This document shows, one piece after another, positions 1-63,147 of a stretch of DNA of 64,000 nucleotides; position 1 is the first letter of the stretch, and every line of letters begins with the position of its first letter. Under the pieces are notes generated by a model. It worked only from the letters and a program-made list of their open reading frames with translations. It ran no database searches and was not told the origin of the DNA. The position numbers and the translations under genes are program-made. The stretch is from Amoebophrya sp. A120 (lineage: Eukaryota; Protista; Dinoflagellata), in assembly GCA_905178155.1 (NCBI GenBank), contig CAJINV010000003.1, forward strand, positions 2,623,065 to 2,687,064, given 5' to 3'.

Positions 1-3000
1 TGAACGCGCGCCGGAGAACGTCGGCGTACTTCTTCTCGGGCAGGAGAACGAGTTCGGGACACAAATGCCGGATCGAAAACATCAGTAGCGACGGCAAGGT
101 CGGCGTAACCACAGGCGAAAACAGCCCTGTCCCCGGGGCGAGGCGCGCGGACACGGTGTGGGGGGCGTCAGTCTTTTTATCGTCCATGAGGAAATTACTA
201 AAAATATGAGGCGTAGAAGTACTGGTAGAAGCAGGTCCGACGGAGTCGTCGACTCGTTGGGCCTTGGCCGCGAGCAACGTCTCGAGAGTGTGCTGGTCGA
301 GCAGGCGTTCCGTGTGCGGACCTTTGGGTAAGTGGCCAGCAGAGACAAACGCTTGGGTCAACTGCTCAAAGCGGCGCAGCCCCGCTATCTGCAGTTCGTG
401 CGTCTCCAGAACCTCCAGCGGGGGACGCAGATGTGCGATGGGTGTGCGGGTGGGGAGATACTCGTAGCTTTCAAAATACTGCGCTACAACAGCTCGGGCA
501 GCAGCAGCTTCCTGATTGGAGTCGAATGCTGTGCTTCTGGCAGCGGTTGCGGCATGTAGTTCTTGCACTGCGGGCGACTGCTGACGCTTCAACAAAGTTT
601 GTCCGGGCTCGCTGGCTTCGTGTGCTGGTCGTGCGAGATGTTGAAACATTGGGCCTCCGGCCTGCGGCATGCATATTCGCGCAACGTCGTTTTTCAGGGC
701 AACAGTCCAGAAATCGTCGAGGGGGTGCCTGGTCGCCAGTCGTTTCCCGTGGTACAGACTCAAGAAGAAGATGCACCGTGTGTCCAGGGCCTGGTCAACA
801 ACGGGGGTGCGAGGCTCTGTGTCTCCGAATACCCTCACCATTCGCCTTTTCTCCGCGTGTGCGGCCTGAAGAATCGTCCGGTCGAGGTCTTCCGCTTCCA
901 CATCAACGTCGTCTAACTTCGCGCGCGCAGCTGCGACGGCCTTGCGCTCCGAGTCGGCCAGGGCTTGCAACTGTTCTCGCCGCGCCGCAGCGTTGATCAT
1001 CGGGCCCGCCGGGGCAGCAGCTCCGTCGAGATGACCCGTCTCCCCCTCCTCGGCGCTCAAATTTCGACTGTCATCTTCAGAGGGCGCGGACTCTTCATCC
1101 TGCTCGACATCTGCCACATCTTCCGGCAGTGCATCGGCGGCTGAAACTACACCAAGCGCAGCAGCTCTCGACGTCGACCTCCCACCCGTACCTACGGCCA
1201 TAAGCTCGTCGACGCCAGCCTGCGTCGCGGACCCGATTCCGATGCGGCTGGGGGCCGCGTCGCCGAGGATGCCGACCGTCTCCTCCGGCCCCTGCAGCTG
1301 CTCCTCGTAGTACAAAACCGGCGGCGGTGGATCGCGGTAATACAGTAGCGCCGCTGCTGCTGGCGCAGCTGCTGTCGCTGTATTTGCAGCTGCGGCGGGC
1401 ACACTCGTCGGCGGTTCCTCCGCGATTCGCTCCACCTCTCCACCAGGTGCTGACTCCGCGGCCCCAAGAACTACTCCAGGAGCCGCCACGGCTCGACCGC
1501 GCGCTTGCCGTTCCCGAAGGCGGGCAGCGCGCTGCTCTCGCTCTTGTCGCTCTTCCTGCAACAAGGTTTCCGCACGGCAGATGTGCGTGCACTCCTGCAT
1601 GGTGAAGACGCGCTGGCCCTTCTCAATGGCTTCGGCACGCTCGGGGCCAAACAGCATGTTGACGTCCTCGAACCCGCCATCCGGCGCAAGTGCCTCGACC
1701 GCAAAGGCTTTCGAAAACAGGCCCGGAACCGGGAAGGGATTCTCTTCGGAACTGCGCTCCGCGACGAGCGCGTGGTCGGGATTCAGTTCGTCTCCGTCCT
1801 GGCGCAGCTGGCGGCGCTCCCGCTTGGTTTTCGCTAGTCGCGCCGACGCGGAAGCAGCAAACGCTTTTCGGTCACCGTAGGCACCGTGGAGGTCGTCGTC
1901 GTCTTGCGGCGCGTTGTCTTCCCTGATGCGCACCACCTTCGCGGCGTACAAACGCCTGCACACGCGCCCGAAATCAACGGTGCGCGAAAAGATCCCGACT
2001 TTCTCGTACCCCAAAGCGATATTAGTAGAGGCTTTCATCATCTTGCCACGAGGACCCTCCTCCTGCGAGAACTTCTTCGTCCCCAGGCAGGGCGCGAGAA
2101 AAGCGCCCCAGTCGGCCGGTTGAAAATCGAACCCCAGCTCGTACACGTAGTGCGTGAGGGCAATGCAGAACGCCTCGAACTCCTCGGGGGAGCTGCGCTG
2201 TCGCCGGTACCACGCACCGATGGCAGCACCCGTGTGGTAAAGGCAATCCAGGAAACAGCGCAGTACCTGCTCGTCAATGAAGACCGGGAAATGTTCGCCG
2301 CCTTTCGCCGCGCGCAGACTCGCAACGGCCTCGGCCCGGGTTTTGCGCTCGGAGCTGGAGGCCGCGGCCGCCTGGCCGAGCGACTGCTTGGCGCGCGCCC
2401 GCACGAAGTGGTCGTGCGCCGTTTCGCGCGCGTGGAGCAGGCCCGTCGCGATTTCCGCACTCACGTTGGACAAGCCGCGAAACACCAGGCGAAAGAGCTC
2501 CTGCGCGGTCACGTAGGTCCACACCGCGACCTCGTGGTCGTCGGACGTCATGGCAACGATGGCCAACAGCGGTTCCAGCAGTGCTAACTGCTTCAAGTTG
2601 CCCCACTGGAGTAGCAGGTGGGGCACGAAGGCCTCCAGGTTGAAGTAGTTGGTTTTCAGGCTGAGGTGCTGCAGTGTGGCGTGCCGCGCGATCCTATTGA
2701 AAGGAAAAACTCCCCCTCCCCATATTGAAAAGGTATGTTTCCGAAGTTTTGTGTTGCTGATTTGAGGTCACAGATCACATTTGTCTTGCAACAAGACAAG
2801 GGCAGAAGCTTCCGTCCCATTATCGAAGCGGTTTGTCATGCTGTTGGGCCTAAAGGGGAGCCGTTTGCCATGCTGAACAACTAGACCCATACGCCCCGGC
2901 CAGCCTGGGGATCTGGCCGCAATGCCTTCCTGCAGCACAAAGCTGATTTGTGTACACAAATCCAGCATCAGAAATTCCGTTTTGATATGGGGAGGGGGGA

Positions 3001-4834
3001 TTTTTCCTTTCGCTAGAACCAGGAACGGTCGGAGTCGGTCGGGGCCGGGACGTGACTATCAAATGTAAAAATGTCTGGGTCTGGAAAATTCTTACATTTG
3101 TCATGTATATTTTCCATGGCCCATGATGTCTGTGATGCATGCCGTAGCATCACAGATTTTTAGAGCGCTTTGCGATGCCTCTTCCGCATGAGAAACGGCC
3201 TCTCCGCGTAGCACAAACTGGAGTCCTCTTGCTGGTCATGCAATACAAAGTTTTTCAGAATCCAGAGACAGCATTACAAGTTTAGAATGTTCCATTTGAT
3301 AGTGACCGGCTAGGAGCAAGATGCGCACCAAGTGCACGCTCTGCTGCTTGCGTAGCCAGGACGGCTCTCGCTTGCTGAAGTAGAGCAGCCGAAATGCCAA
3401 CTGGAACAGGTCCTGGGGCGGAAAGGCGCGGAACAGCCACGTGCAGAGCTGCAACAAGCTCGTCTCCAGGCGGTCTGCGCAACTCCGTGCCAATGGGGTA
3501 TCAGCACTTAATACTTTCGCGTAGGAGCCGCGCAACTGTCCTCGTCGGTCCATAGAACTGGAAGCAGGATCATTCAAATTTTTCTTTTCTCTCGTCCTCC
3601 CCGGGGACGAGAACGGCAGCAGGCTGCGCTGGTCCAAGATTGCTTCGTTCTTCTCGAGGTCCACAAGAGTTTGCAAAACCTCGTGGACGAAGGCCTTTCC
3701 AACGCGCAGCCGCGTTCCCTGCGGGAATGCCGCGCGGTCCAGAGCGAGCAGGGCAAGTAAGTCGTCCGCCAAAACCAGTTTCCACTGCATCTCCAGGTTC
3801 GGCACCACAAAAAAATTGACCAGCAGGTTCCACATGCGAAACCGCGCCGAGGCGTTCCGATGCCGGCTCTGGGCGATCGTTTCCGTTTGTAGGCCTGAAA
3901 TGCCGTCACCGGAGAGTTTGTACGCCGTGTCAGGCTTCGTGGAAAGAACCGTCGAGGGCGGAGGATGGATTTCGCGTGCTGCCTCGTCGTCGCCACTCGG
4001 CGTGGCTTCTTTGTTCCCGCCATCCGGCGACGTGAAGAGGCCGCGCAGGAAGCTACCGAGGTTGTCCGCGATGTTTTGCGCGACCGAAGTCACTCGCTCG
4101 ACCAGCGTTTCCTCGCGTGGCGGCAAAAACACGCCCGGGGGGTGCTTCTCCCACCGGGACAGCAAGCGGGTGGGTTCCTCGCCCCAGGCGCACCGCACAA
4201 TGGCGGACGCGAGCAAAAAGCACTCCCACAGTAGGGTGCGCGCTATCGGGGAGCCCCTCAGCGCGGCCAGGTTCCAGGAAGCATCCGTCTGGTTATTTGC
4301 GCTAGGTAGTTCTTGTTCCGTGGAAGGATGAAACGCCGCAGCGAAAAAGCCGTCCTCGCGCTCTAGCGTGAGTGAAGCGCGCAGCAGTGGTTGCAGGGTC
4401 GCGAACAAAGTGAGTAAGGCACACTGTGTCAGGGTCTCGCCCGAACGCGGGGGGATGAAACTGAATGCGGAGGCTTCTTGACCGCTCTCCGCAAAAGCCT
4501 GCGTCGCAGGAATGAAGCGTCGCTTCTTCCGGCGGACGTAGTAGTTTTTGGCGACTGTGAACACGTCCAGCGTACACGAAGATGCGGGCTTCGGCGTCGA
4601 ACTTGTCGGAGCGCTGCCGTGTTTTTCTGGCTGCAGTTTCGCGTCCTGGTTCTCGGTGGTTGGTTCGGCATTCCCACGACCTCCGGTTGTCCCGGGAGGA
4701 GCATCTTCGGTGTGTGGCCCAATCAAGCGTCCGGACCAGTTGCGTTCATGCCAAACAATGTCGAGTTTGCCATTGCCCTCTACGTGGGAGGCGCCGTCGG
4801 AGAATATCAGGTTGCGCGCCGCAGCCTTCTGCAC
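1..4834 (-). CDS. Large hypothetical protein (>1400 aa, runs off the left edge), 3 exons split by two introners
   Basis: ORF 3236..4834 joins via micro-exon 3016-3056 to a frame that reads as protein at 2690, ~1200 and position 2 (..LLLAGH|VPAPTDSDRSW|IARHATLQHLSLKTNYF..). Start is uncertain; not every codon of 1-2690 was checked. Confidence 0.75.
2695..3015. mobile_element. Introner, family B (321 bp)
   Basis: TIR tattgaaaggaaaaactccccctccccatat / atatggggaggggggatttttcctttcgcta; TSD gatcc/gaacc; close reverse-complement relative of 36155-36476. Confidence 0.9.
3057..3301. mobile_element. Introner, family A (245 bp), right TIR internally deleted
   Basis: Starts tatcaaatgtaaaaatgtctgggtctggaa and ends ttccatttgata; perfect TSD gtgac; excision restores frame. 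Confidence 0.9.
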
Positions 4835-8210: not shown

Positions 8211-8489
8211 GGATTCCTTGGAACAGTTGCGGCTGGGCAGATTGAAGGCACGGCTGCGCTATGGGCGGGTTCTCAAACGGCACAATCTCAACTGTTACAT
8301 GATTTCATCTCATGCAGAAAGAACAACATCACCATCGCGCTTCACGCGATCAAACTTCTTCTCGTGACAATCTTCCGGCGTGGGCGCGCAAAATAGCATC
8401 AGAATCCGTTCCATATCTGTAGATGCAAACCGCGCAAGGATGTTCCCCTTAGTTTCACTTTCGCTACTAGGTATTCTTGCATCACAGAC

Positions 8490-11400
8490 CTACTTATGTA
8501 ACAGTTGAGAGTGTAACGGGTGAGAGAAGCGCCATAAGGTCCACGGAAGGATTCGGGGCAGCAGGCCGAGACTGAGCTCGAGGATTCGCGCCCGCCGCCA
8601 GCGGTACTGGGCGAAAAACAGTTCCTCCTGCTTTTGCATGCGTTTGTTGCGCTGGCCAAGGGAAAGCCGCCCCGTTTTCCGGTTCACGTGCACCGATTTT
8701 CGCTGGTGGTAGATCTTTTGCAGGTAGTCGTCCACCTTCTTCCAGTGCTGGGACATGTCCCGCAGGTGCGCCAGCGTCAAATTCTGGCGCAGGCCGAACA
8801 CGTACTCCAGATGTCGCGCGTAGTAGTCGTCCTCGCTGAACAACTGCAGGGAGCAGTGGGCCGAAAACCAATAATCAAGCGGCCGCCAGTGGGCGACAAT
8901 TTTGTCTTGTTTCCGCGCTTTGCGGATGTAGTGTTGGTCCAACAGCAAGTCATCGGCGTTGTCTTCCTCGTCCTCCGCGGCATCGTCTGGGAGGAGCTGT
9001 TGTTGCACGTTGTCGGCGAGGGTCGCGGCATTTACCACTTCCGCTTGTCGTTCGGGAGATATCACTTGCGGTGCCGCGTCCTCTCCTTGTGCAATTTTTT
9101 CGTCGGACAGCCCGTCTTTCGGCGAACTCTCAAAGACTGAGACTGCAGTGTTGACAAACGAAGCTAGCTGTCCGAAAAACGAACTCTTCGGCTGTTGTTC
9201 CCCTGCGCCTTCTGGTGCCTCCATACTGTGCTGGCCCTCGAACGTCATGCCGTGCGGTTTCATGTTTAGTTTTCCTTGTTGTCCCTGCTTGGTCGCTGGC
9301 TTTGCATTCAGTTTTCCTTTTCCCTTTGTAGGGGTTCCAGCTCTCTGTTCTGGGGTGCCTTTTTTTGATGTTGGCGACGAAACATTCAGGCGGCCCTTGG
9401 ATGTAGCCTTTTGTGGCGCTGCTTTTGGACTTCCCGGGGCGGAAACCGGTTTTTTACCTTTCTTGCTCTTGCCTTTCTTTTTGCCTTGTTTTCCCTTGCC
9501 TTTCTTGCCCGCGTGTAACTGCAGAAGCTGATTTCCAGCAGCCTGCGCCATAGCAGGGTCTTCTGCACCCTCCAGGGAGGGTTCTCTCACCCCCGCGGTG
9601 ACAGGACCCTCTTTTCCTTTCAGTATGTCTTGCTGCATTTGCTTTCGGCGCTCGCGCGCGCGAATGCGATTTGCCGCGACCTGCTTCTCGTGCTGAAAAT
9701 CTGTTCCCAACTGGTCGGGATGTTCTTCCGTTGTATTCTGGTCGACGATTCCCTGGCCGGGTGCGGTCGGCTCCAAATCGGAATAGTCCGAGGACGACGA
9801 GGACGCTAAAGTTTCACTCCCTACATGAGGCGCCATGCCGGTAGCAGTACTAGCCGTTGATGTTCTTCCTCGTGTTTTCATCTTCCCGGAGGTACTAGGA
9901 GCACGGTCACGGAACCTATTCGGACTATCCGCCTGCTGGGGTGCTTCAATATTTCGCCGTCGCTTTCGCTTGAGGAGCACCGCGTCTGGCACATTTTGCA
10001 GCAAAGAATCCGGGTAGATAGCTCCGAAAGTCTCGCCCTCGCCACCGACAATGTCGGAGATTTGCAGCACCAGCCGCAGAATCGCGGGGCCGAAGACTAC
10101 GCGCTCCAGCTCGAGTTGCTCTCGCAGCAAACGGTCTCGTTGTTCCAGAAGGGTCGGGTCGACGGCTTTTTGCGCGTCTCTATCGATTGAACCCTCCTCC
10201 TCGTCCTTACCGTTCACTGCAGCCTTCATCTCGAACACATCGACACCCTTGGGCACTGGCTTCGATGCCGGTGCCGGCGTAATCCCGAGCGCTTCGTGTC
10301 GTAGACACTCATCGTACAAACGAGTCAGCACGGCCAGCCCATTTTCCAGGTCCCCGGCGCGCAGGTCGCACGATATCAGCAAGCGACGCTTGAGGTTCAC
10401 CGCGATCAAGTTCTTGAGCAGCAACTTGTCGGTGAAGCTGCGCAACACCAATTGCACGTCGTCTAAGCGCTGGTCCTCGAAAGCCGCGGGAAGAGGCCGC
10501 GGGGGCGACGTAAAAGTTGATTCCCGTCCTCCCGTTTTGCTCCGCAGATTCGCCACGTACAGGGCGTGGTGCAGCACGACAACGCACTCGCGGCCGTGTG
10601 CCGTGGGCTGCGCCGGCAAAAATTCGTCCTCCAAGAAGTCCGAAGTAACACGAATGTGTGGGCGGGACAGCAAGAGCAGCGTTTCCCGCCAGCGCTTGAA
10701 CAACAAAAACTTCACCGTGCTGAAGGGCAAGCCAATCGGGCAGTCGAAGTGCGCCATGGAGTGGAGGATCCAGTAGTGCAGCTGGGGCACGTTGATTCGC
10801 AACAAGACGCATAGTTTCGCGAAAAACGGCAGCAGATTCACGGTCGCGCTCGCGTTTCGAATCGCGTCTTGTTCGCTTCGCTCCGGTTGATTTTCCAGGT
10901 CTTTTGCATTCGGGCGTGGAACGAAGTGCCAGATGGAAATTAAAAAAGCAAACTCAGCGAGCTGAGCGATCTTGTGGCAGATTTGCTTAACCCGCTTGCG
11001 TCGCAGGCGACGAAGGACAATCACGATTTGTACGTTCGCATCTGTAGTAGTTCGTGCTCCAGATGGATTTTGTGTCGAATTATCCTGTTGCGGTCCCGAT
11101 GGATCCACCTCGTGGAAAGCGCGAACGGCATCGCGCTGCGCGGTCCGCAGCTCTCGAAGACGCTTGGACTGCTTCTTCGCGATGAGATTCAGTAGCAGCT
11201 GGAATCGTTGTTGCTGAAGCTGTGCCGCCTCTTCTTTTTCTGCGACCGCCTGCATCCAGCCTGCGTCATCGTCCTCTGCGAGTTCCGCACTTTTCACCGT
11301 CCGCTCCTGAAATCGGTCCTCCGACTCTTGTCCGCTGCTGTACTCGTCTTCGTCGCCGGATGACATCTCATCTTCGCCGTTCGCGGGACGAATGGGCTTT

Positions 11401-14099: not shown

Positions 14100-16190
14100 A
14101 ATACTTCGTTGCATGTCATAGACGGATTCCGGAGCGTAGGCGCCTGGTCCTGGAGTTTCTTCCGACCTAAGTTCGTTGTTTTTTCCGCTTTCGTCAAAAC
14201 ATTGGTGTTTGACAGACGGTATACGATGAAAGGGCCGCTAAGTATAAGTTCTACGCATGATCGGCACCTGAAATTTTATTAAACAGGCACTGCATGATAC
14301 CCATTGACTGTGATTGCATTGCGGGATGCAGCAGAAGCAGAAGCAACAGATGTAGAAAAAAAAACGTAGAAAAAGCGGGCCCCGACTGTGGTAGTTTGCG
14401 GCCTGTGCGGGCGATTCGGACGCCCTTTTTGAGGAGCGGATCCTGTGGCACGCGGGGAGAATACGCGGCTGGACCGGGCGTGGCCTCGTTCGCCGCGCCC
14501 ACAAACCGTGGACTTCGGGACCCCAGAAAAGCCGTCGAGTTTACTTTCAAGGTCGATTCTGGGTGTGTTGTATGCATCATGGTGAATAGAAATTGTAAAA
14601 AATATCAACATGAGACCGTAGTTCGTCTATGTTGTGATATCGCTGTCACTCAAGTCGCTTTCTTGTCATTTTATTTTTGTTTTCTTTGAATTTCCAATTC
14701 CATAATAAGTACGTGCGCTCCTGCTCCTGAGCAGAAGAAATCCGACAACTCACAAGTAGAACTAGTACTCAAACAGTTTGCATACACTTACGCGGTGTGT
14801 AGAATTGCGCAGTGGTAGATGCGTGCTCTCGCTTGTTCATCCATGCTATGGTGCGGTTAGCCTTCCCAATCACGCCTCCACCGGTCCGATTGCGTTTGTC
14901 TCCGAATGTTGTGAGTTTTTCGTAGAATCCGGCACCGTTTCCGGCATCTGTTTATACATCATCTCTTGAGATGCGTGCGTTGAAGATTTCATCCAGGATG
15001 AGTGGGCAACTCAGCTGCGCTGGTCTGTCTCTCTTCATCGCCGAAGTGCAAATTCGCCAAGTTAGAGTTTTTTTTTGCGCAAGGTGACAAAAGAACGCTG
15101 AATTTTATTGGGTGAGCAACGCAATCGAGTCGTTCTCGTTCGTGCATGTTGATTAGCCTACGACCCGATTCGGCGTATTCGCTAAAGAATGCTCTCTTTG
15201 TAATCGTACATCTACATACACATAGTACTTGCTTAAGATCGTTATTTATATACCATCCTTCAGCTTTTGCGGCCAGTGTGTTGTGGTGTCGCGAACGGGA
15301 GCGCGTTTCGGACCACCCTTGATACTGACACCACTCGAGGTGGCGGGCCGAAAACTGCTCTTGACGACGTTGTATGGATTGTAAAAATGTCTGGGTCTGG
15401 AAACTTGTGATGCAAGGAAGAGAACAGTGAGCTCACTGAAATGCGCCGCCAAGCATGACAAGTTTTTTGTATGGTTCTGAGTTGCGTATTCCGCATGAGA
15501 AACCGCGTTTTTGCAACACAGGGAGGAGGAGCTCTTTGCGGCCACGCAATACAGAGTTCAGAGTCATGCCAGATTTGCATGACAAGTCTCGCAATCTTCC
15601 AGACCCAGACATTTTTACATTTGATACGTTGTAGGCTCCTGGACCCGGGGTCTCTTCGGGTGCACCAGAAAGCAACTTTGCTGGTTTTTTGTGTTTGATT
15701 CGCCTATCTATCAAAAAGTAGCTCCACAAAACGAGATCAAGATCACAGAGAAAGATGACAGCTAGATCCGATAGAAGTCGCAGAGCGTAAGTTTGTTCGC
15801 TCATCACAGTGAGATGTCCATGTCGGCATAGTACGCATTTGTAAGCCCGAAGAAAATAAACGAAAATTATGCAATACATCTGCTTCCGACGTTCGCCTTT
15901 GGTATGCTTGCGGGCTGTGCCGTACTCAGAGTTGATTTTTGCACTATGAAGTTGGTCTGGGCCGTGGGGGCTTTATCAATCTTGTTTGCACCGTAGAGCC
16001 AAGAGTTGGTATCGCGCGACGCGGTGGGCATTGCATGCCCCTCATGGTACCGGAAGCGGGTCCAGGACATACTTACTCGAAGGTTCTGCCAAGCTTGCAC
16101 GTCTGCCCGAAGTAGGTACCAACGAACAGGACAGCAGAAACAGGGAAGAAACGGTACGGCTGACTTGTTACGGCATTCTTGAGGCAACTA
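14100..16190 (-). CDS. Multi-exon PGPGAY (SHIPPO/ODF3/STPG-type) repeat protein; boundaries approximate, may extend to ~12560
   Basis: Minus-strand motifs TPGPGAYNV (~15640), TPGPAAYSP (~14470), TPGPGAYAP (~14145). Confidence 0.6.
15373..15626. mobile_element. Introner, family A (254 bp)
   Basis: TIR ..gtaaaaatgtctgggtctggaa / ttccagacccagacatttttacatttgata; TSD cgttg; excision gives PGPGAYNV|VKSSF. Confidence 0.9.
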
Positions 16191-16783: not shown

Positions 16784-19700
16784 TTAATAATTTGTCCAGA
16801 TGCGATTCCCCTTCCCACGGACAAAGCGCGGTGCAAATCCAGGCGGGGAGTTGGTCGATGCTTTCGGGTATGCATTGCAAAAGTATCGTACTCGTGATCC
16901 TCATTGCATTTGCAATCTAATCATGCATGACACATCTTCGATCTTAGGTACTTAAATCAGCAGCACGCGTTCTATTTTTTCTTTGGAGAAAATTTGTCAT
17001 ACTTACGACCACTAGGACGATATTTTTGCGATGCGTATTGGAAAGAGCTCCGTTCCCGCGGCAATCATCGGCAAGTTTTCGGCTGGCTCGTGCGCCTCGA
17101 TGAGTTTCGCTTTCGGGAACATTGGACCAAAGATTTTGTCCCGGTGGCGAACTTCCAGTGCATCGTTCTCCAGTAGGCTCCGCAACACCCGCTTCCCACG
17201 GAAAAACTGTTTCACTGTGATGATTTTGCTAGATCTGCATCACAAGTTTGTTACACATGACACTGGAAGTCTGTGATGCGCGCTTTCCAAGGGAAAACAC
17301 GCTTGAAAATCCAATGTGTTGCAGGTGTAGCAAGACAAATAGTTCCGTGTTCCATTTTCTGCATCACAAGTTCACAGTGAAACAGTTTTTTCTTGCGATA
17401 ACCCGGGCCAGCGGCGCGATCCCCAGCCCGAACCGGGCGGACACTCCCATGACGTCGGACCTACAACTCTCGCGGTGTGTGGCAGCAGGAGAACGACCAC
17501 GAGAGGTTTTGTCCTCGCCGGTTGCAGTAGTTGCATCTGTAGTATGTTGTTGAGCAGCAACATCTTCACCATCGACGTTCCCGCCCAGTCTTGCCCCTCC
17601 GAAGCGCGCGCGCCATCGGAAAAAAACGGAATCCAAGTTGTAGAGCGCGTCCTCGTGCAGGCGGTCACACTTGGTGCCCACAATCAGGAAGGGCTTCTCT
17701 GCATTCAAGGGGTCATACCGAATCGCTTCCCGGCGGAGCGTGAGAAACTGCTGGAACGCATCCAGGGCCTCGTGCGAGTAGTGCGCGGGTTCTGCCGTAC
17801 TTCTTGAGAATTGTTCATTTGTCGTCGGCGCAGAGGCGGCAACTTCGGTGACGCCTTGTGCAGCTACCGCCGCGCCGTCAACAAAGCCATCTTCAGTCGT
17901 TACCCCACTTTCATCATCGCGGTCTCCTGCGTCACGATGAGTCTCGGTAGTTTCATCTGAGTCTGAGTCTGTGTCTGTTTCAGATTCATCTCCTTTTTCT
18001 ATCTTTGCGCAATCCACTGTTCTTGCTGTCTTTGTGCTGTCGACGGGGCGACTACTGGTATCGGATTGCGATTGTGGAGACTGCGCCTCGACCTGGCGCT
18101 GCAACGAATCCAATATACTGTTGCGATCTTCTACGCTCAGGTTCTCGTCTCCAGTTACCATGCGCGGCTTTTCTCCTTCACGCAGATGAACCTCTGCACC
18201 ATAGTGAGAAAAGGTGTGGCGTGTTTCCTCTTTTTCGCGGTGATAATGCGGGTCTCGGCACTTCTTCTGTTCACTCAGGATGTTATTTGCAGCACGGTCA
18301 ACATCCAGTGGCTCTCCACTTTCATCTGTGAGCATTTTCAGACCACTACAGTCAGCTGTGTTGTCATCTTCGCTTACTGTTACTGGAAGGGCTTTTGTTA
18401 CGACAGTGTCCTCTGACACGCTTTCACCGCTACAAAAATCTGATGCAGGTACGGCTGGCAGAAGCGGTTGCCGCAGCCTTCGGTTCCTTTCAAGCTCTTC
18501 GCGGATCCGCTTTTATGCAATGCAAAAGCATCGCACTTCTAGTATAAATTGCATTACAAATTAGCCCCCCAGCATTACAAATCAAATTTGTAATGCTGAT
18601 TTACCTTGACAAAGAGATTTGTAATGCATCAATGCAATTACTACGAGTACGATTCTTTTGCACAGGATAGCTTTTCTTGCACAACGACTTCCCCGCGGCG
18701 CAGATAGTCTGCTATTCTTGCGTGAGCAGGGACTGGGTGAACAGATTCATCATCTTCGGTCGACCACAGATCCCCGCAGCTATGGTTTTCTTGTTCAACA
18801 CCCAACAGCTGCGCGCTCTTCGTGGCACCGAATACTGCTGGCAGGTGGGTTGTAGTACTTGAAGAATTACTTATGGCTGTCGGTTTAGTATCAATATTGG
18901 GCTTCCGGGACATGTCGACGACAAACACCAGGACCCGTGCACGGTAGGTGTGACGCAGCACCCGACGACCCTGCTTGGGATGGTCCGCCGCACCGTGCAG
19001 GAGGCCCGGGAGGTCGAGAACTCGCAAGCTGACGCCGTCTTTGAACTTGAGCACACCGGTGTGGGGCCGTGTGGTGGAAAAAGCTTCCGGGCCGATGCGG
19101 GTGTGCGCACGCGTGAGCGCGGCGGCCAGAGCCGTCTTGCCGCTGTTCGGAAAGCCCAGGAGGCAGACGTCGCAGGGCACGCGGTACTCCAGCTCGAGCA
19201 TCCGCTTTTCCCCCTTCGCGCCCTTGCGCCCGTCGTGCAGGCGGAAGTGGCTGGGTCCAATGCCCCCCTTGCCGCCCTTGCAGATGCGAATCTGGTCGCC
19301 GTGCTGCAAAAACTGGTACACGAACTCTGGCAGGTAGACGCGGCGCTTGCCCTCCTCGGTGCGAAAGGGTTCGTTGCTCTCCGGCGCGCGGTACAACTTG
19401 CGCTCGCGCACGATGGTTCCCACCGGTATGGGGGTGTCAGGATTGAAATCGATAAAGTTGAAATAACTTGCAATGCCCAAAATCAATACCAGTTGCAGCC
19501 CAATTCCTAAGCGGCGCATGAGAAATTTCGGCACCGGCTAAATCCAGTTTGTCATGCTCTTTAGGGACAGAAGGCGTCTTTTGTCATGCTACTTTAGCAA
19601 TAGACAATAGACACCCAAAATAGCTCATAGAGCCCTGTCATGCTACTTTAGCAGCTATATCGCAGACCCCAAACAGGCTGACAGTCGGCCTCACTTGCCA

Positions 19701-21670: not shown

Positions 21671-22821
21671 TCAATTCTCTTTTTCGCGCACCAAATCGGA
21701 CACGTCCGAAAAGTATTTGATATCAGTCTTGATGGGAAGCGTGACCGACAGAACGCCCTTGAGTTTGTCCCACTTGGCGTTTCCCTCGTCTTTATACACG
21801 GGATGTGGCAGCGCCACATTAAGTTTGTACAGTTTGGAGCTGCAGTATGGAAAGAAAAAAGTTCGTCACAATCACTAACGTGCAGGTTTTGCATGAGAAA
21901 TTTTTCCAGCATCACAGGTTTTTCTTGTATTGCAGAAACACTAGGGAAATCCCTTATGAAATTTGGCTGTGATGCATTTTTACGCATGACAGCCAATTTT
22001 GTATTGCAAAAATGCGCATGAGTGATCGTGACGAACTTTTTTTGTTTGATATGCAGAGCACCCGCTGTTCGAGTACGTCCAGGGTTATGTCCTTCAGCTC
22101 CGTGTTTGGCAACTTTATCTTCACCACTATCTCGTGGCAATGGTCGGAGCTCCCGTCCTTCTGGCCTGAGAGTTTTTTAAGTGGCGAACGTAGAAGATTC
22201 TGATATGGTGATATGGTTATGAAGAACGACAATCAAAACGAAGAACTACTGCTGTGTTGAACATAGTACGGAACTACTCAACGAAGTATGTGAGCAAGAA
22301 AAAAGCTGTAGTAATAACTTTTATACCAAGGTTCAGAAAGACGTCTTCGCTTCCAACATCCTGCTTAAACAATATGTCGTAGTCGGGAACTTTCCGGTCG
22401 TCGCCGTCGTCCTTTATTACGACACCTGCGTTCTCCTTGAAGTCTGTGTCCGCCCAAATGGGCTCTGCTTTCTTCTCCACGACCTTTGGCTTTTGTCGGA
22501 CACTCACCTATGTGTTCGTTGTCGAAATGTCGCAGATGAAAGTGTTTCTTCTTGTTCTTTGCGCTGAGACTGTACTTTTGCTCAAGCTCATGCGCGTAGG
22601 CATGTCGATGGCGATGCCAGTTAGGAAGTAGTGCAGGGAAAAAGCAAAACAATGACCACAAATATTACCTTCATGTTTGGTCGTGCCTGGCTCCGAGGCT
22701 TATATCCCATGGCTGTACGTTCCGCAGCGACGGCGTTGGGTGGTAGAGTGCTGGTCTCTTGTTCTTCCTCGTTGCCCACACCGAGCAGGCCCATCAGGCC
22801 GTGTATTTGTTCCGCGTTCAT
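21671..22821 (-). CDS. PIH1D3: PIH1D3/DNAAF6 (Twister) dynein assembly factor, multi-exon
   Basis: PDYDILFKQDVGSEDVFLNLG, KDGSSDHCHEIVVKIKLPNTELKDITLDV, then after the introner YKLNVALPHPVYKDEGNAKWDKLKGVLSVTLP. Confidence 0.85.
21846..22051. mobile_element. Introner, family E (206 bp)
   Basis: TIR tatggaaagaaaaaagttcgtcacaatcact / agtgatcgtgacgaactttttttgtttgata; TSD tgcag; homologous to 26693-26916. Confidence 0.92.
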
Positions 22822-23611: not shown

Positions 23612-23663
23612 CTTAGGTTGTACAATCACCACGACTTAGCCTTAGGTTGTACAATCGCCACGA
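23612..23663. repeat. Short direct repeat, 2 x 23 bp
   Basis: cttaggttgtacaatc(a/g)ccacga at 23612 and 23641, intergenic. Confidence 0.7.
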
Positions 23664-42007: not shown

Positions 42008-45000
42008 CTATCGGCTAAAAATGCTGCGACCTGACTCATATGCGTTGCAAAAGTATCGCACTACAGTGTACCTTTAGAAACAACATCACAAATTTTTATT
42101 TTGGCAAGAACAAAAGTAGTACGTACTTCATGCATTATGCTGATTCAACTTCAAACAGCTTAGAAAAGAAAAGGACGGTTTTATTCATGATCACGCATGA
42201 CTGCAAGTGCAATTTAATCATACGAGTGCGATACTTTTGCAGAGCATAACTCACACTCCCGGTCTATGGCCTTCTCAAGTGTTACATTCTCAACTGTTGC
42301 ATGAATTTGTGATGCAAGAATGGCAAAAGTCAAAGGGGTGACCTTGCGCGTCTTGCATGACAGATTCGGCGCAGATTCTCAGCCTGTTTGGCTCTTCGAG
42401 AATTTGTCATGCAAAGCAGCTTGACCGTGTCAATGCTGATTGTAATTCTGCATGACAAATCTAAATCATGTCACAGTTGAGAATGTAACATTTGAGAATC
42501 CCATACGGTCCAGCACGACAAAAACCGACTCCGCATCGCGGCCATGAAGGATTTGCGCGAGCTATTACAATGAAAAATGCCCCCACCCCCGAACTTGGGA
42601 GCATTTGTGTTGCAAACCTTTCCAAATGAAGCATTCGCCCTCTTGCATCTATCAGCATCACAGGTTTCCAATCGTGGATAGCAAAAATTTGTATTGCAAA
42701 AGACCCCAGCAGGAACGGCGCTTGTCATGCAAGCAATGCGATACACGCCTAGAATCTGCATCAGAAAGATTCATACTCCTTTCATGCATGGCAAAAAGTT
42801 TTCATTTGGAAACTTCGCATCACAAATTTTTGCAATTTATTCAGGAGTGGGGGGCATTTTTCACTGTACTACGAGCGACTTTTTCACGTACGCTGGCTCG
42901 TGCTGCAGTAGCGCCGCCAGGGCGTAGTCGCGGCGGTCAATCGAAGTCAAGCCAGCTTCGTGCGCGACGAGCACATCGATAATCTGTTGTGCCAGGCGCT
43001 CGGAGTCCACACCCAGCGCCGGCAGCCGTTCGGCGATGAGTTCGGGGCTCTTCTGGAGGTGCACAGCATTTTGGCCACCCAGGTGCACGTGCTTGGCCTG
43101 CCACGGATGGAGCAACCCGCTCTGCAGCGTTGGTGCGCCCGTAAAGACCACCATCCCGGCTTCGTCCGGAAAGTACAGGTTCCAAGTTTCCGAGCGTGAT
43201 CTACTTCCACCAAAGTAACGAGGCTCCTGCGGCGAAGTTGTGGCAGAGCTGCTCGTCGTGCTGGTCTCCTTATTTCCACCTGCCGTAGTTGATGTTAGGG
43301 CGTTTATTGCCATCGCAGTGTTGACGGTTGTGCTGTTTGTTCCTTCTTGTGAGCTTCGTTCCGCTTCGGCGTCATCTTCCACGAGTCTACCATCGACAAA
43401 AACTTGCCGGGACAAAATACTGATAGCAGGCATGTCTATTTCACCCGAACTTGGTGGCCGTGAAGATGTAGTCGGGCGTATAATTTTTTCCGTCGAGGAC
43501 AACTTAGACTTTTTCACCGTCAGGTCGTGCGCGGTAGAGGACACCTCCTCGGAGGAGCCCCCTGAAAAAAGAGATGTTCTTGCGCCGCCGCCCTTGTTAG
43601 CAGCCTGTAAAGAGAGTAGGGCTGCGGTCAGCGTTCGATTGTTCAGATTCAAATGCTATCCAATGTAAAAATGTCTGGGTCTGGAAGATTGCAACTTGTC
43701 GTGCTAAATCTGCAGCATGCAAAAATCTATGTTGCATGATTACCAAAAGTCGCCCAATTTTGACCAAGTCGGGAGGTAGTTTCTCATGCAGGATAGGCAT
43801 GAGAAAGATCGCACAGAATCTGTCATGCTAGGTCCGGCATTCCAGACCTCATGGGTCATGGAAAAGCAGCATGACAAATCGCGCATTCTTCTAGACCCAG
43901 ACATTTTTACATTTGATACATGCTGAAACAACAGGTTGCTCTCCTGGTCGACCACGTCGTGGGCATTATTATTTCCAGACTCAGTAGGGAGTACAACAGT
44001 CGGAGCTGAAGTTGTTCTACTATCGTACCGCCACAGGACCGTGACGTTTCGTTTAGTAGTGGGAACGTGATTCGCCAGGGCGGACCGCACAAATAACTTC
44101 TCGAACTTGTCTGCGGATATGCTTTCGCCTTGTTGCAGGTCGAAAGCCACACAGGAAAATCTGAAGTTCGTTTGTGCCAAGGAATCCAACACGCCCTGCT
44201 CAGCGTTCTTTGTTACAACTTCACGTCCGGCGCGGTCCTCTCCGCGCAGCACGACAGGTGGTCCTGCTCGGGAACCCGGCGGCGGGTGACTGCTTTGCTG
44301 GTCGACGTGTGGAGCAAAGTTCAGGAAGTCGTCCCGGGGCCATTGATGCAGAACCAGAAAGAGGGGAATGTCGCTTTCAGCGATTATCTGGTTCTGCTGT
44401 TGCAGGTACCGTGCGGCGATACGCTGTCGCGTCAGCGTCACGTAATAATCCAGCGACGGAGTCGTGGCAGTCGTGTCCCGAGCAGCTCCCTGTCGTGGCG
44501 GGCATGCGACCGCCGGACCTGCGACGGCGACCGTCAACGACCTTCGACTGGCCAGCTGCAGCCACATGGCATCTTCGCTTCCCCCACCACAATCGCTGCA
44601 AACCTGCGAGGGAGGAAAAAAGTCCCGCGCCCGCAGTGTGGTGAGTAGGCTGGTGGTGGTGGGTGCAGCTGCTACGGGCGGCCGCACATGGACATCTTGT
44701 TCAAGTGAGGTGGCTGCTCCGCTGTTACTTGTTGAAGACTTCTGGAGAGGCCCAGTAGACGAGGGAGCGCTTGTTCCACCGCATCCCACAACTGACAAGA
44801 GCACCCCTCGTGGAAGTGCATCTGCGGTTGGTGGGAGGCGATTGGGGTCCGGATGCTGAATGAGAAAGTCCTCTGCAAGCGCTTCGAACAAATTTTCCGC
44901 GCTATCAACCACGTTGCTGCGGCCCCACTTTCCCGAGCCAAAAAAGCGCTTGTTCGAGGCCGACGAGTCGTTGTATGCAGCTCGGGAGCTGCGAGCTGGA

Positions 45001-46112: not shown

Positions 46113-49100
46113 TCATTGCCGCTTGAGGTAGTTGTTCCAGTCGTCTTTTGCGGACGCCCTATCAAATGCAAATATGTCTGGGTCTGGAAGGATCCAAACT
46201 TGTCATGCTGTTTTTCTACTCTAAAAAAATCTGCATAGCATGACCAGCAAGAGCAGGAGCCCCGATTGTGCTACGCGGAAACGGCATTTGTCATGCGCAA
46301 TAGGCATCAGGATCAGGAAGCCTTCCAAAAATCCGTGATGCTAAGCCATGCACTACAGGCATCGTGGGGCATGTAAAATATGCATGACAAACCTGGCAAT
46401 CTTCCAGACCCAGACATTTTTGCAGTTGGTACACCCCAAGGCGGTACCACTGCGTCGCCGTGGTCTTGAAACCCTTTAACACCGGACAGGCACTGTGGAA
46501 GGAGAGGGACGCGGGGTCCGGATTGTAGGTGAACAGGAGGAGGCTGCCCTCTTTTGGGGTGTACTTGATTCGGTCTTTTGGGAACACGGTGGCGCCCCCG
46601 CGCTCCGGCTCGTTGCAGTACAACAGCGTGGTGCAGACCCGCATGCCCTTCTCCAGCTTCGGCAGGCCGCAGTTGCCGTCGCAGTGCGGGCGGTACTCGT
46701 AGCCCGCCTTGTAGTAGAGCCAGTTGATGGGTTCCTGTCCGGGCGTGTGCACGGGGTACTTGGTGAGCTGCCGAGTGACGTTGAAGAAGCGCAGCCCCAG
46801 TGTCCGCAGCAGCTTCTCTATCGGAATGAAAAATCCCCCTCCCCATATCAAAACGAAACTCTGTGATGCAGATTTGTGGCCACAAATCAGCTTTGTGATG
46901 GTAGAAGGCAAAAGATGCGGACTGTAGTGCTGCCTAAGGTGGAAAAGCCTTGCAGCTCCAGGATGACAGGAGGCAACTGGAAGTGGGAAACAGCATGACA
47001 GATTACCTGCAGTTTAGGCCGCAGCTTCGTCTCTTGGCCTTCGAGCAATACAAGTCGACTTGTGTACTAAAATACAGCATCACAAATTCGCGCATCTTCC
47101 GTTTCCGATATGGGGTGGGGGCTTTTTTCACTTTGATATTCTCGAAGTCGTCCGACAGCGCCGTCTCGTCCTCCACGTACTGGGGGAACATGTTGCGGCT
47201 CAGCGTCTATCAAATGCAAAAGCGTCTGGGTCTGGAAAGTTGGAACTTGTGATGCTAACTCTGGACTCTAAAAAAATCTGTATTGCATGACCAGCAAGAG
47301 GGGCCACGTTTGTGCTACGCGAGGAGGGCATTTGTCTTGCGGAAATGGCATCAGGAAGCCTTCCAAAAATCTGTGATGCTGGGTCATGCATTACATCAAG
47401 CATCATGGGTCATGCCAGACAAGCATGACAAGCCTTGCATTCTTCCAGACCCAGATATTTTTGCATTTGATAGCGTCCGCCGCGCCTTACTGTATCCGCC
47501 CTTGCTGGTCACGCTGGCGCGGGTCAGCTGGCCCGGCCCGCCGCGCGCGATCAGGGGCGCGCACTCGGCGCCGGTACCCTATTCACTGGAAAAAATCACA
47601 TGCCCTCTAGGTCGTGGTCTGCATATAAAGTACGCGCATTGAGGTCATCTTCATCTTCATGCCGAGTCGCGCATGCGCATCACAGCGCGCCGGCCTTCTG
47701 TGCAGCGTGAACAACGCATCGCAAGTGGTTTTTCGGCTGGTAATATATAGTTCGCGATGCGACGCTACTTAGTCTTACCATATCTATTTTGCACACTATT
47801 CCTGAAGTTGTTTGTGTTTCCATCGTCCACTAGCTGCACGACAAAAATGAAACTCACAAATCCTTTTACTGCAGTTCACAGATCCTTGCCGACGTATCCA
47901 CACAACGCATCTTCACAGATCCAGACCGAGACGTACATATTTTCCATGCATATGCCCACATCCTCGACGACAAACACGGACGGGTTTTCCCGCAACACGT
48001 GCACCCGCGCCGTGCGTCCGTCCGGCAGCGTCAAGGGGTCCGCTTCGCGAAGCGGGGTGGTGTCCGGCTGCACATTGCAAAGACGGAAATGCGACACCGA
48101 TTCCCACAGCTGGGGGAACCAGGTTCGCACGAACCCGGGCGGCATTCGAAACCGCGTGTCGGGAACGAGATCGGTAGTTTCGGTGTCATCGAGAGTGGTC
48201 GGTACCCTGCTGCCTTCTTTTGCACTAGTACTACTACCGACGGTTTTATTGGCCACATCGGCCTCGACGTCCTGAGGTACCGCTTGTACTTTCATCGGCA
48301 AGTACATGTTGTCCCCCAAGCATTTGTGAAAGTTCGCCAGGTCGTCCTCGTCGCTGCTAGAGCTCGTGCCTTCCGGGGCGCACTCGTTTGCAACGCCCGT
48401 GTTGGCGAAGAACACTTTCATTTCGTCCTCCATGAAAGTTCCCACACTCTTTCCATCGGGCGCAATGACGAGGAGAAAAAGCTCCCCCGGATAGGAAAAC
48501 TTGTGCTCCAGCAAAGGAGAAGGTGCAGCCACGCCGCCAAACCAACCGGACGAGGAGTCGTCATTTGAAGAGGATTTTTCGATTCCTGTGGACAAGACAA
48601 AAGCCGTGTTCGCGTCGGCCTTTACGCGAACCATACTCAGTGGCGCTTGCTGTGGTAGTCCTTCGGATGCGGGTGCAGCTGCTGTCGGCGCTGGCGGGAT
48701 AGCGAAGCGGACCGATCCCACCTCCGCCACCAGCTCCGCGGGCTGGCTAGCCAAGTTGAACACCACCATCTCGTCTGGCGCGTGGCTGCCCTCAGCGGGT
48801 TTCATCTTGGCAAAATCGCTAGAAGACTTCATCAAAACCGGGAGTCCCTCCGAAACCGCAGCAACCAGCTCCCCCCACTGCTGTCCGGGAATCTCGCTTT
48901 CCAGTTGCGCGATTTGTTGCTCGCTGAGGCAAGAAGAAGAACTTGCCCCAGCAGTCGCTCCATGATCCTCGTTCTGAGCATCTGCGCTGCACTTTGCGGA
49001 CGTGGCCGACGACGAGGATGTTAGTGCCCCGCGGCTGAGAATATCCCGCTTCAGTGCGGAGAAACGGAAGACCTCGGTCACGACCTTTTGCTGCTCGTCC

Positions 49101-55568: not shown

Positions 55569-58364
55569 TCAGTGCGGCGATTGTTGCGTCGCCGGTGAGC
55601 TTGCTATTGACGCCGGAGTCTGCAGAAACCTTGAGAGGATTCTGAAACGCTCCCCGCCCGCTCCTAAGGCACTGCTGGGTCGTTCGCATTGGTATTGCTG
55701 CTCGCCGCTGTTGATATCATCGCCTGCATCCACAACAGGTGCGTCATCCCTGTTCGCTTTCATTTGTGCATTTTCCATCGCATCTTCAGGAGGAGCGGCG
55801 ACAGGAACAGCCGCGTTGCCACCATCCGTAACGTCAGCCACTACTTCTTTTGCGGTAGGTGCGTGCAGTTCATTAGTACCTTGCACTTCTTCATCATCAA
55901 TATCTGGTGAGCGTGTTGTACCGAATCTTCCGTTGGCCTGGTCCAATTCTGTAGCTCTCGTCGAAATCACCTCCTCAGCCGGCCCGTCGCCCTCCATCTT
56001 TTCCAGCTGCCATGCGTCACGTAGGTCAGGCTCCATTTTCGTTCCATGGGACAGCTGCGTGTCCTGTTTCGTACCGCCTTGCGGAACCGGTAGTCCGGGA
56101 TCTTCAGCGGGGGGAAGGTCCAAATCTGTCGTGGGCACGAAGGCCGGACGAGGAGGACCATCTGGGTTAATAATGGACCCTGCTTCTGGTTCTGCGATTG
56201 GCTTCTGCGCGAATGTGAAAGCATACTTCTTTTGCGCGTCCACAATGGGCAGAAACATCATCTGCGCTCCTTTCTCCGAACACGACCTGCGCGGAGACGA
56301 CGGTCGTTGCGCTTGCAGAGCCGGATCAGATTCACACTCTTTCTGTGGACCGGCACAAGAACTACTCACTGTGGCAGCTTCTCCAGTAGTACCGGACATG
56401 ATTGCATTTTTGTCTTCCGCATTCATAATTTCCGCACCGCTTCTTGCATCTACTTGTTCGCGCATCGTCTGCTGCCCCGGCGGATAAGAGGGTCGTGACA
56501 CCATCGAAGGAGATGTGTGCTGCTGTACAAGATATGTACTAGGAGACGCAACTTCTACCGCGCGGTGTGCCCCCACCCCTTTGAACGTCGCTTCGCTACC
56601 ACCGTCGTCGTCGTCGTCGTCCGCGCTATCCTCATGATCTTGCTCAAGTGTAAATGCTGGTCCTTGAAAATGCAGAATTCGGTTTGTTTGCGGAAGACGA
56701 GGGTGTTGCAGGCCGCCTCCTGTTCCCACCGCGTTGCTCACCATTCGAGCGATTGGAGAGTTGGTAGTAGAATCGTGCAGGAGCCGAGCGTTCGTGAAAA
56801 ACCTGTTGCCCTCGCGGCCTCTTTCCAATTCTACATTCATAGGACCACCTCCGCGGCGGTCTGTGGGAGGTAGCCAGAAGTCGCGCAGGCCAAACTGTAA
56901 CTCAGTGGAGGTGTATCAAATGTAAAAATGTCTGGGTCTGGAAGAATGCAACTTGTAATGCGTATTTCAGAACACAGAAAAATCTCTCATGCATACGTAG
57001 CAAAAGCTCCCACCTTTTGTCAGCAAAATAGGGGGCTTGTCATGCGGATTCGGCATTGCGGAAGGTTCTAGAAACCTGTGATGCTAGAGCTTCCATGCCA
57101 GACCTTCTGTGTCATGCAAAAACAGCATGATTCTTCCAGACCCAGACATTTTTACATTTGATAAGGTGAGGGTCCAGCTGTACTTGCCCGTCAAAAGCTG
57201 CAAGAGTCCACGAATGACGAAGTAAATTATGAAGCAGAACAGCGCGGTTTGTTGGTCTTCAAAATGCTGCTCAAGCTTTTCCCTTTGGGCTAAATTCATT
57301 GTGCGCAGCTGTGCCTCCAGCCATCCCGGTGACTTTCTATGCCGCTCCAGCCACTGCGCCGAGTGCGCGAATCGCAGTCGGGGATCGTAGCCATAGACAG
57401 CTTGCCACCGCGTTGCCGTTTTTGTTTTTGCGGCGTTTTGATGTGCAGCTTGACCTTGTTCTGCGCTGCTGTGCTCTCCAGGGGTACGGCCCACGGTATT
57501 ATCATCGCGAACTCCATCTGCATCTTTTCTATTTCTGTTTTCTTCAGCAACCTGAGCTGGGTCGCTTTCTATTGGCCCAAGAAATTTATCGGCGGCGGCC
57601 GTCTGGGGGACTATTTCCCCCACTTCATCAACATCGTGACTCTGACTCACTGGTGTGTGCTGCATTTCTTGTCGCACGAGAGTTGCTGCGCTCGCAGATG
57701 AAAGTCGTTCCGCGGTCTCAGCACCGCGCACTTCCCCCGAATCTTCCGGTTTTTTCTCTGTTCTAACATCACTTTCATCCTGCTCAGGAGCCGTTCCATA
57801 ATCTTCCCCGTTGTCCGCCACCACAACGTAATGAAGAAGCTGCATGACGGGCTCTGCGTCATCAAGTTCTTTGTGCTTCTGGTGCTCCTCTGCGATAGAA
57901 AGCCTGATGAAGGTCAACCCTTCGGACACGTTCGTGTAGGCTGGCTGCATGGTGCTCACCACCAGTTGTAGGTTAAACATGAACCAGCAGCCGCAGATGA
58001 CGAGAGCGAAAAAGTAGCCGAACCACGCGGTGAAGGGGCAGAGGAAGTGATTCAACTCCCGCGGAGTCCTCCGCGGACAGCTCAAAGACCGGTGGCAGGG
58101 CCTAAAAAACGGATCCTGCTGCATGAAGAAAATCCCGCACACGAAGAAGAACAGGTCGAAATGAACGTTGAACAGAAAGTAGTCGGCGCGGAGGAGCAGC
58201 CCAAGCAGCACGCCGGAGAAAGCATACACCAGGACCCCGACCAGCAGCCACCGGACCGTTCGTCGATGCTTTTCCACCGGGTCATGCCCCGCCGGACCAC
58301 GAACAAAAGCGCCCACACACAGCAGACACTGCATCCGGAGTCGCAGACACAATGGGGTCATCAT
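55569..58364 (-). CDS. Hypothetical multi-pass membrane protein, 2 exons
   Basis: ORFs 57084..58364 and 55569..56840 join in frame after introner removal (WTLT|STELQFG); several hydrophobic segments. Confidence 0.75.
56914..57163. mobile_element. Introner, family A (250 bp)
   Basis: Near-perfect ~32-bp TIR; TSD aggtg. Confidence 0.93.
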
Positions 58365-61511: not shown

Positions 61512-61726
61512 ATAATACTCCTCACTACCATGGCAGGGGCGTGACTCCCTGGGACCTGAGAATAATAGAAATACAGACGGAAATAGAATCTCACAAGCGA
61601 AATGGCTTGCCGTCTCTTAATTGGGGGAATGTTCTCAGGTCCTGGCTACCAATGGCCGAAGGGCTGGGGTCTGTATAAAATACCGACCGACCAGCCTCAG
61701 CCTAGACTCACAGGCTCGCTAGACTT

Positions 61727-63147
61727 CTACTGCCCGGTCATACATTTAACAATTACGAAGAGGACGAAAAACACCACCGCGGTGATTTTGAATCCGTGAG
61801 CAGCCCAGTAGAGCCCCAGAAGCTGCTCGATTATGGCGTTCTCAACTGTTAAACTCTCAACTGTTGCATGATTTGCCATGCAAATTTACCACCAAGAGCG
61901 CCACGATTACGCTGCTTCGCCTTCGCGTGACAAATATCTAAACAGCATCGAAATCCAGATGTGTTACGCAGAAGGCGCAATCTTCCCCCTTTCTTTTCAC
62001 TTTCGCCGCTCTTGCATTACAAATTAGCGCTACAGTTGAGAATGTAACATTGGAGAACGCCATATGGATGTACTCTATGTTCTGTTTCGCGGAAAGTTTG
62101 GATTCCCCGTGCAGCCGCTCCTGGAACATGATTGGCACGTCCTGGACCGAACACCGACAGCGTGCCATGATTTCCAGCCCAATCTTGAACCCGATCGGAT
62201 TAATTTGGTCGATGCCACGCTGCAGCGTGCCTTTCCGCACGCAGAAGAACCCGCTCATGGGATCTCTCGAGCTACACAACCCCCACGCGAGCGCTGTTGC
62301 CCCCAAACCTGTTTTTGAATGCAGTTGTCATATTACATGGGGACCAGAAGCGAAGCGGAAGTATACTGCAAAGAAGGCTTTCCTGCATCTGTATATTGCA
62401 ATTGTTCCAAGTACGTAGCAGTGAGCGACAAGCGCATTACTCAAAACTTGCCGCTTGACGCTCCAATTGAATGCGATGCCACCCTGCTTCATATAGCGGC
62501 AGCCAACTGTGAAATCAACTTTGCGGTCCAGAACCGGGGCCGCTACTGCTGGGACTGACTCTGGCTCGTGTTGCAGATCGGCGTCCATGGCTGTATGTAT
62601 GAGTTGGATGTCGAGGATTGATCTTGGGTTTCCACCATCATTCGGTGTTGTTTTTTACTACATGCGGTGCACGCGGCATGTGCCCGAAACAGATACTACC
62701 TTGTAACGCGATACCAAAGTCAAACAAAAACAAAAAAAGTGCATTAGATCACGAGCAGGATATGTAGTCACAACAGTGAGGTCGTAGAAAGCAAGCCGTG
62801 ACGCGGCACCAGTTGTAGTTACAGTTAGTACATAGCATCACGTCATATTTCGCTTTCTGGAAACCCAGCATGACTGCGGAAGACAAACCCCGTCCCTCTG
62901 ATCGGTAACGCCTGTGAATTCGTATGGGATACTTTTTGGCCGCCAGATCCGTGACCAGTTTCTCCGTCTCCTCTGAGCCAGCCGACTCGTCGTCCACAAG
63001 CAGCAGCTCTGCCGGAAGCTCGGGGAGCTCCTTGCGCAACGTCGCGAACAATCTTTCGCACAATGGCACCACGTTCTCCACCTCGTTGTACGTCGGAATC
63101 ACTACGGAAAGCCCGTTCACAACCGCAACAGAGGAAGAACTCGACAT
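61727..63147 (-). CDS. DPM1: Dolichol-phosphate mannose synthase (yeast-type, C-terminal TM); 2 GT-AG introns + 1 introner
   Basis: LSVVIPTYNEVENV, LLVDDES, GRGLSSAVMLGF, MDADLQHEPE, DPMSGFF, GFKIGLEI, FQERLHGESKL, EYI|QQLLGLYW + TM. Confidence 0.92.
61832..62064. mobile_element. Introner, family F (233 bp)
   Basis: TIR tatggcgttctc.a.tgtta.a.tctcaactgt; TSD tcgat/tggat. Confidence 0.9.

Follow-up and report, generated by a model that had tools for sequence, protein, structure and literature searches.

Inside the introners of the dinoflagellate Amoebophrya sp. A120, short elements bounded by terminal inverted repeats (TIRs), lies a repeated sequence, TGTNWTGC, that is conserved within families and helically phased, and where one mobilising protein common to the families, itself probably a transposase or a cofactor of one and possibly integrase-like, probably binds double-stranded DNA. 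The elements considered here come from a window of 64,000 nucleotides (assembly GCA_905178155.1, contig CAJINV010000003.1, forward strand, positions 2,623,065 to 2,687,064); ‘the window’ means the whole of that stretch. They were delimited by inverted ends, required only to read TA, and by flanking duplications; the motif played no part. Of 119 strict matches to TGTNWTGC, 97 fall inside the 29 elements so found (7,200 bp), a density of 13.5 per kb versus 0.39 outside; AT-rich segments free of elements have 0.76. In 1000 dinucleotide shuffles the mean was 4.3 matches and the maximum 12, so that the motif is commoner than in shuffled introners, contrary to the refuting outcome named in the initial annotation. 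With one representative per family there are still 39 strict matches versus 1.8, and a strict match is present in 27 of the 29 elements.

Homologous sites define the motif more fully, as about RRAYY-TGTNATGC-W, and a profile built from 41 homologous consensus sites was used to locate the sites given below. The initial annotation quoted nine coordinates: seven read TGTNWTGC exactly and two, 2866 and 37425, are degenerate. The first of these is still called by the profile; the second is not, and the triplet described for family A (37361, 37393 and 37425, spaced ‘32, 32’) is therefore unsupported. The count of 29 comprises 28 elements of TAT...ATA type and the repeat at 59422-59641; a decayed copy at 25961-26115 was found later and stands outside the motif counts. 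The former repeat, probably the one first put forward as introner family K, has an inverted repeat only, with no TAT ends, duplication or motif, and is therefore a repeat of another kind. The elements are listed here; TSD is target-site duplication, and joints are those of spliced contigs from four runs of one sample, presumed to be RNA.

2695..3015, family B introner; TIR, TSD 4/5; one contig skips 326 = 321 + 5; motif centres 2754+, 2786+, 2838+, 2870+, 2935- and 2968- (three pairs at 32-33 bp)
3057..3301, family A introner; TSD 5/5; orientation reverse of the copies from 37321 on
8260..8536, decayed family H introner; duplication 2/5; ends approximate
15373..15626, family A introner, short-end variant; TSD 5/5; first site centred 38 bp inside the end; joint skips 259 = 254 + 5 in 4/4 runs
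16869..17037, decayed family E introner; TSD 3/5; one strict site; joint skips 174
17192..17400, family G introner; TSD 5/5; joint skips 214
18514..18669, family E introner; sites face outward, at spacings of 18 and 31 bp; joint skips 161
19427..19787, family I introner within the Obg GTPase gene; joint skips 366 in 2/4 runs
19917..20141, family J introner
21846..22051, family C introner
24534..24842, family D introner; centres 24582+ and 24613+, a 31-bp pair
25236..25392, family E introner
25961..26115, decayed E-like introner; duplication 5/5; lacks a strict site and has one strong degenerate one; removal from the transcript indicated by size arithmetic on a contig
26693..26916, family C introner; contig pieces leave out 26688-26916
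28901..29087, family L introner; contig pieces leave out 28897-29088
35806..36126, family B introner
36155..36476, family B introner
37321..37583, family A introner; strict sites start at 37361+, 37393+, 37502- and 37534-, an inward 32-bp pair at each end
37794..37943, family E introner
37998..38259, family A introner
42039..42248, introner whose ends are E-like; one site by the profile, none strict
42265..42505, family H introner
42563..42871, family D introner
43657..43918, family A introner
46160..46431, family A introner
46819..47138, family B introner
47208..47472, family A introner
56914..57163, family A introner
61832..62064, family H introner

An independent set gives the same picture. 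This consists of 133 loci from one metagenome assembly, fetched with the family-A end pattern (together 633 kb once redundancy is removed, and sharing no unique locus with the window); it over-represents family A, and its strain may differ from the window's. The loci yield 386 elements in 19 families, the TAT start here being a detection criterion. They hold 1454 strict matches versus about 65 in shuffles; 383 of the 386 elements have at least one, and in 17 of the 19 families density is at least 8 per kb. A perfect 5-bp duplication flanks 217 of 287 strong TIR pairs, a 6-bp duplication none of the 287. The start common to families is TAT(C/G), about seven variable bases and then an A-rich tract (A at positions 11-15 has a family-weighted frequency of 0.63-0.83), which some families lack. 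Short (109-496 bp), TIR-bounded, flanked by TSDs and repeated (with as many as 177 copies of one family across the 633 kb), the elements take the form of MITEs (miniature inverted-repeat transposable elements).

The conservation of the motif is best seen in trees of eight subfamily alignments, with rates of change expressed relative to the element interior. On this scale the core columns of the motif score 0.16 for internal branches and 0.44 for tips; positions 11-30 of the terminal repeat are less constrained (0.37 and 0.58), and the N of the motif is free (1.1-1.3). The excess of conservation over the rest of the interior is significant in all eight alignments, and the impression that the motifs are less diverged than the sequence between them was correct.

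Geometry supplies the second line of evidence. There are 25 same-strand pairs at 31-33 bp where 3.7 are expected (p=0.0005, corrected for the best window), and 14 of the 20 family-level units contribute to them; convergent spacings of 14-15 and 45-48 and divergent spacings of 17-18 are also enriched. At other helical multiples the 20 units give same-strand counts of 0 at 10-11, 2 at 20-22, 1 at 41-43 and 0 at 62-64; with none at 10-11 or 62-64, the arrangement is a discrete pair, not a ladder. Thus the spacing of about 32 bp, read at first as three helical turns, stands as a preferred interval, whereas general periodicity falls to p=0.058 once that peak is removed, and a ladder of 10.5-bp multiples is not seen in the spacing analysis. 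The stronger geometric signal is the distance from the element end to the first inward-facing site, which is 37-41, 46-51 or 59-61 bp at 26 ends. Reduced to 12 clan-level points and taken at a period of 10.5 bp, these distances have a phase concentration of R=0.84 (p=0.0002 by permutation). The helical step is taken even inside single families: 38 bp in 44 copies versus 46-48 in 81, and 49 in 5 versus 59-60 in 18. These steps are new in this analysis.

The elements leave transcripts with one copy of the duplication. Among 11 listed joints, six skip exactly the length of the element with 5 nt added; the remaining five, in the same contigs, correspond to GT-AG introns, and none of those five contains the motif. 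Two further skips of this kind follow from contig pieces (26693..26916 and 28901..29087). Where the two copies of the duplication differ (16864-17038, 2690-3016), it is the transcript-downstream copy that leaves together with the element. Insertion occurs in both orientations (131 versus 144, the coding strand being taken from open frames), and in a frame test, which is noisy, 251 of 338 are open after removal of the element plus 5 nt, versus about 175 out of frame.

The reading that we prefer supposes that a mobilising protein would bind the site 3.5, 4.5 or 5.5 turns from the end together with a partner site 31-33 bp deeper; so bound, it would set its catalytic domain on the TAT terminus, and insertion would follow with a 5-bp stagger. 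Only copies with intact sites would spawn new ones, so that selection would act at mobilisation and the sites would decay once inserted. As specificity would lie inside, the terminal repeat would be free to drift between families provided that its arms stay complementary; splicing would be served by the pairing of those arms, not by the motif. The initial annotation had offered a DNA-binding protein as one explanation; conservation around a free middle base, independence of orientation and the kept end phase support this, the version with subterminal transposase sites fitting best, and the candidate protein itself was not found.

Several observations weigh against a mobilising protein of this kind. 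No transposase or recombinase domain was present in the 24 window ORFs (open reading frames) or in 263 of 329 locus ORFs selected for a Pfam search (at least 150 amino acids), the 287 scanned in all covering well under 1% of the genome at the size we presume for the lineage. The available text of Farhat et al. 2021 reports no transposase found in A120 and rules out general mobilisation by transposase (PMC7789003). The motif, unlike the subterminal motifs of Emigrant or Sleeping Beauty, does not copy any part of the terminal repeat. Within families the 32-bp intervals show no greater constancy of length than other intervals (p=0.46); where the first site faces outward (11 ends) it does not keep the same phase, and subfamily S01 has 42 versus 46; and the family points share ancestry and are non-independent. 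Two further points, the slow decay of the motif in older copies and its clusters outside recognisable elements, belong with the alternative that they most favour.

That alternative, possible though rather unlikely, is that a host protein binding double-stranded DNA reads the motif and remains important after insertion, for example by way of a chromatin mark for co-transcriptional splicing in either orientation; it might also aid mobilisation. Neither a transposase nor U1 small nuclear RNA (snRNA) was detected in A120 according to the available text (PMC7789003), and the flanks of 193 elements show no GT/AG or any other base preference in transcript sense. All window elements for which there is RNA evidence keep one or more sites that are strict or score strongly with the profile. 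With age marked by duplication and terminus defects in 530 profile-found copies, the extra decay of the motif relative to the interior is 0.66 (0.39-1.00), 0.53 (0.24-0.97) or 0.65 (0.20-1.29) in three versions of the estimate, a hint of some constraint after insertion. Strong profile matches outside recognisable elements number 168 versus 39-54 in shuffles, and form 26 clusters versus 0-3; of the 26, 19 have no detectable terminal repeat; 8 of 32 same-strand spacings among these matches are at 31-33.

Against this, motif and terminal repeat are lost in step: divergence rises together in older copies, from 0.026 to 0.070 and from 0.030 to 0.078, and relative to conserved terminal-repeat columns the extra decay of the motif is 0.80 (0.41-1.42) and 1.11 (0.68-1.88). 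Constraint is strongest on internal branches. In a simulation of neutral decay, 11-16% of elements at 15-30% divergence lost a detectable terminal repeat and kept a motif cluster; some 120-170 old elements, if present, could thus account for the orphan clusters. Motif divergence is equal in non-coding and coding copies (0.090 versus 0.089), only eight non-coding copies being available, too few to decide. Altogether the data favour decay of the motif after insertion, with partial protection possible. Less likely again is a double role, in which one host-encoded or domesticated DNA-binding protein would read the phased code both to copy introners and to mark insertions for splicing in either orientation, with no need of a splice-site consensus or of U1.

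Common descent has also to be considered, as the introner families are one mosaic group. At z>4, 23 of 190 pairs of family units have interior similarity beyond the motif (against a lenient null of 30 shuffles), and a module is visibly common to S04 and S07. Since interior modules are common to families, the initial description of these as otherwise unrelated was wrong in part; counts across families are also less independent for this reason, and conservation within families is still unexplained by ancestry. That the motif and its spacing are mere relics of descent and module shuffling, with no binding function, would fit these similarities and the ordinary constraint on the 32-bp interval; it is nonetheless very improbable, being largely refuted by conservation: motif columns change 2-6 times less within families, for every base type and with one position free, and end distances shift by a helical turn inside single families.

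A comparably small chance attaches to action of the motif in RNA, where complementary copies would form a long intron hairpin or a splicing factor would bind. Predicted folding of interiors does exceed that of shuffles (z from -0.05 to -5.9 as family means), and predicted motif-motif pairing has a mean probability of 0-0.76; but the copies are inverted, and that alone predicts such a folding signal. The terminal repeat arms behave as paired sequence, with co-change at 1.88 times expectation, 60% of it compensatory. The motif does not: co-change is 0.67 times expectation at N and 0.93 in the core (random pairs, 0.96), and at N of the outer pair complementarity is 0.27 versus 0.44 expected. In subfamily S03 every site lies on one strand, leaving no complementary partners, and the motif is conserved in both transcript orientations (mismatches 30/497 versus 43/648; interior 22%). 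An RNA zipper, as first suggested, is therefore unlikely, and recruitment of a splicing factor fares no better; the motif appears to be read as double-stranded DNA. Of five canonical donors, those at 14104 and 15877 of the window, on the minus strand, read GTATTGC and overlap the motif. Mimicry of a donor site was considered and rejected, GTATTGC having no strand bias outside elements in the loci (11 versus 11).

The notion that composition, or the decay of CpG, produced the motif as a side effect in TG/CA-rich sequence, to which de novo expectation-maximisation lends something by shrinking it to a pseudo-palindrome (TG-N5-CA from all 15 best starts), can be set aside in view of the roughly 22-fold excess over dinucleotide shuffles, the fixed spacing, the kept end phase and the absence of CpG hypermutation in introners (C>T 0.041 at CpG versus 0.044 elsewhere).

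Subterminal transposase sites are a known kind, described in MITEs and hAT elements (PMC1636448, PMC10368747), and the introner sites have the same general form, being repeated, conserved and internal, near both ends. Comparison is with the available portions of the papers cited. Emigrant is likewise a MITE, and the transposase protein Lemi1 binds cooperatively to its subterminal motifs; it differs in that these motifs copy half of the TIR, which is the main determinant; in introners the TIR varies and the internal site is constant (PMC1636448). Hermes, a hAT element, also has, internal to its TIR, short sites that recur in either orientation, but these are 4-bp cores in asymmetric arrays; introners have a site of 8-13 bp, fixed pair spacing, end phase and varied TIRs (PMC10368747). 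The likeness to hAT5 is in the 5-bp TSD length only, (PMC12730594), and no hAT transposase with its BED finger is among the scanned ORFs. IS3EU and GingerRoot share TA..TA termini, those of fungal IS3EU being TAYGG, and have an integrase-related transposase (PMC10045372, PMC6839031, PMC12730594); their TSD is 6 bp and that of introners strictly 5 bp, and the introners are therefore not assigned there. In the available text of the GingerRoot paper the word ‘subterminal’ is absent. Ginger1 and Ginger2, which need TG..CA termini, were rejected, the introner ends being TA..TA.

Within the lineage, the source paper on A120 introners describes the same TAT start with A-tract, inverted ends, short direct repeats, non-canonical splicing and co-oriented genes; in its available text introners are described by ends and direct repeats only and divided into 1954 families, and both mobility and splicing mode are left open (PMC7789003). 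In the table of Gozashti et al. 2025, of which 38 of the 58 A120 rows are covered here, most are classed ‘TIR DNA, Unknown’ (PMC12130899). Family 38 of that table (~808 bp, ‘5-bp TSD, TA/TA Termini’) resembles the present elements, by description, as a TIR element with the same TSD length and termini in the same lineage, and differs in being longer and in having ORFs, one of them integrase-like, that resemble sequence of the long-terminal-repeat elements Copia and Gypsy (PMC12130899). It is the best lead to the mobilising protein. Searches of the literature, including term searches of the available main texts of PMC7789003, PMC12130899, PMC11282704 and bioRxiv 2024.09.05.611473 (figures and theses excluded), found no description of the motif.

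Other candidates for a source were discarded. Seven long TIR pairs (697-4208 bp) that might have been autonomous copies proved to be adjacent elements or nested insertions. Protein patterns for hAT, Tc1, integrase and recombinase gave no credible match. The family-A end pattern has no match in viral contigs; the motif-pair pattern has four, taken as chance, two of which are one stretch, with a local repeat, by a gene that by eye resembles a phage terminase. The motif may resemble bacterial tyrosine-recombinase sites; the 5-bp duplication argues against such chemistry.

Some features of the surroundings may be recorded. The window is eukaryotic in character, with long minus-strand ORFs interrupted by AT-rich repeats; the closest named relative of its Obg GTPase is a dinoflagellate protein, and the minus-strand ORF at 51149-54946 combines a VLRF1 domain with a weak match to VATC, and is Vms1/ANKZF1-like. 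The region 59040-61560 is of a different repeat type, with no TAT ends, duplication or motif; it contains the 220-bp inverted-repeat unit at 59422-59641, an AT-rich palindrome at ~60360-60460 and a ~237-bp tandem array (61039-61512). At 21520-21620 two motif sites 71 bp apart lie inside a stretch that is repeated, of high depth in DNA contigs and without definable ends. Among the metagenome loci, L008:2628-6083 carries a C5 DNA methyltransferase gene, yet the introners show no CpG hypermutation. Introners at L040:9994-10965, L046:11765-12912, L052:18659-19584 and L069:765-1461 hold several hundred bases of nested foreign sequence, that in L040 with a ~19-bp duplication on its flanks and an A-rich tract at its end. 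Private indels of introner copies in the subfamily alignments (L001-L133) comprise 253 insertions versus 50 deletions, with a strong mode at 3 bp (104 at 3 bp, 29 at 6 bp and 55 at 1 bp); tandem duplications make up only 11 of the 104. This bias towards frame-multiple insertions within introns may be a repair signature.

That a conserved and phased site recurs in family after family suggests a single mobilisation system behind many of the nominal families. A constant interior with variable ends is the inverse of the usual MITE pattern, and it divides the element into testable parts, DNA recognition by the internal sites and splicing by the complementary arms. The motif is in addition a bait for isolating the missing protein, and a sensitive marker of old non-canonical introns. 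Were the protein to prove dual in role, it would constitute a DNA-encoded system of intron definition.

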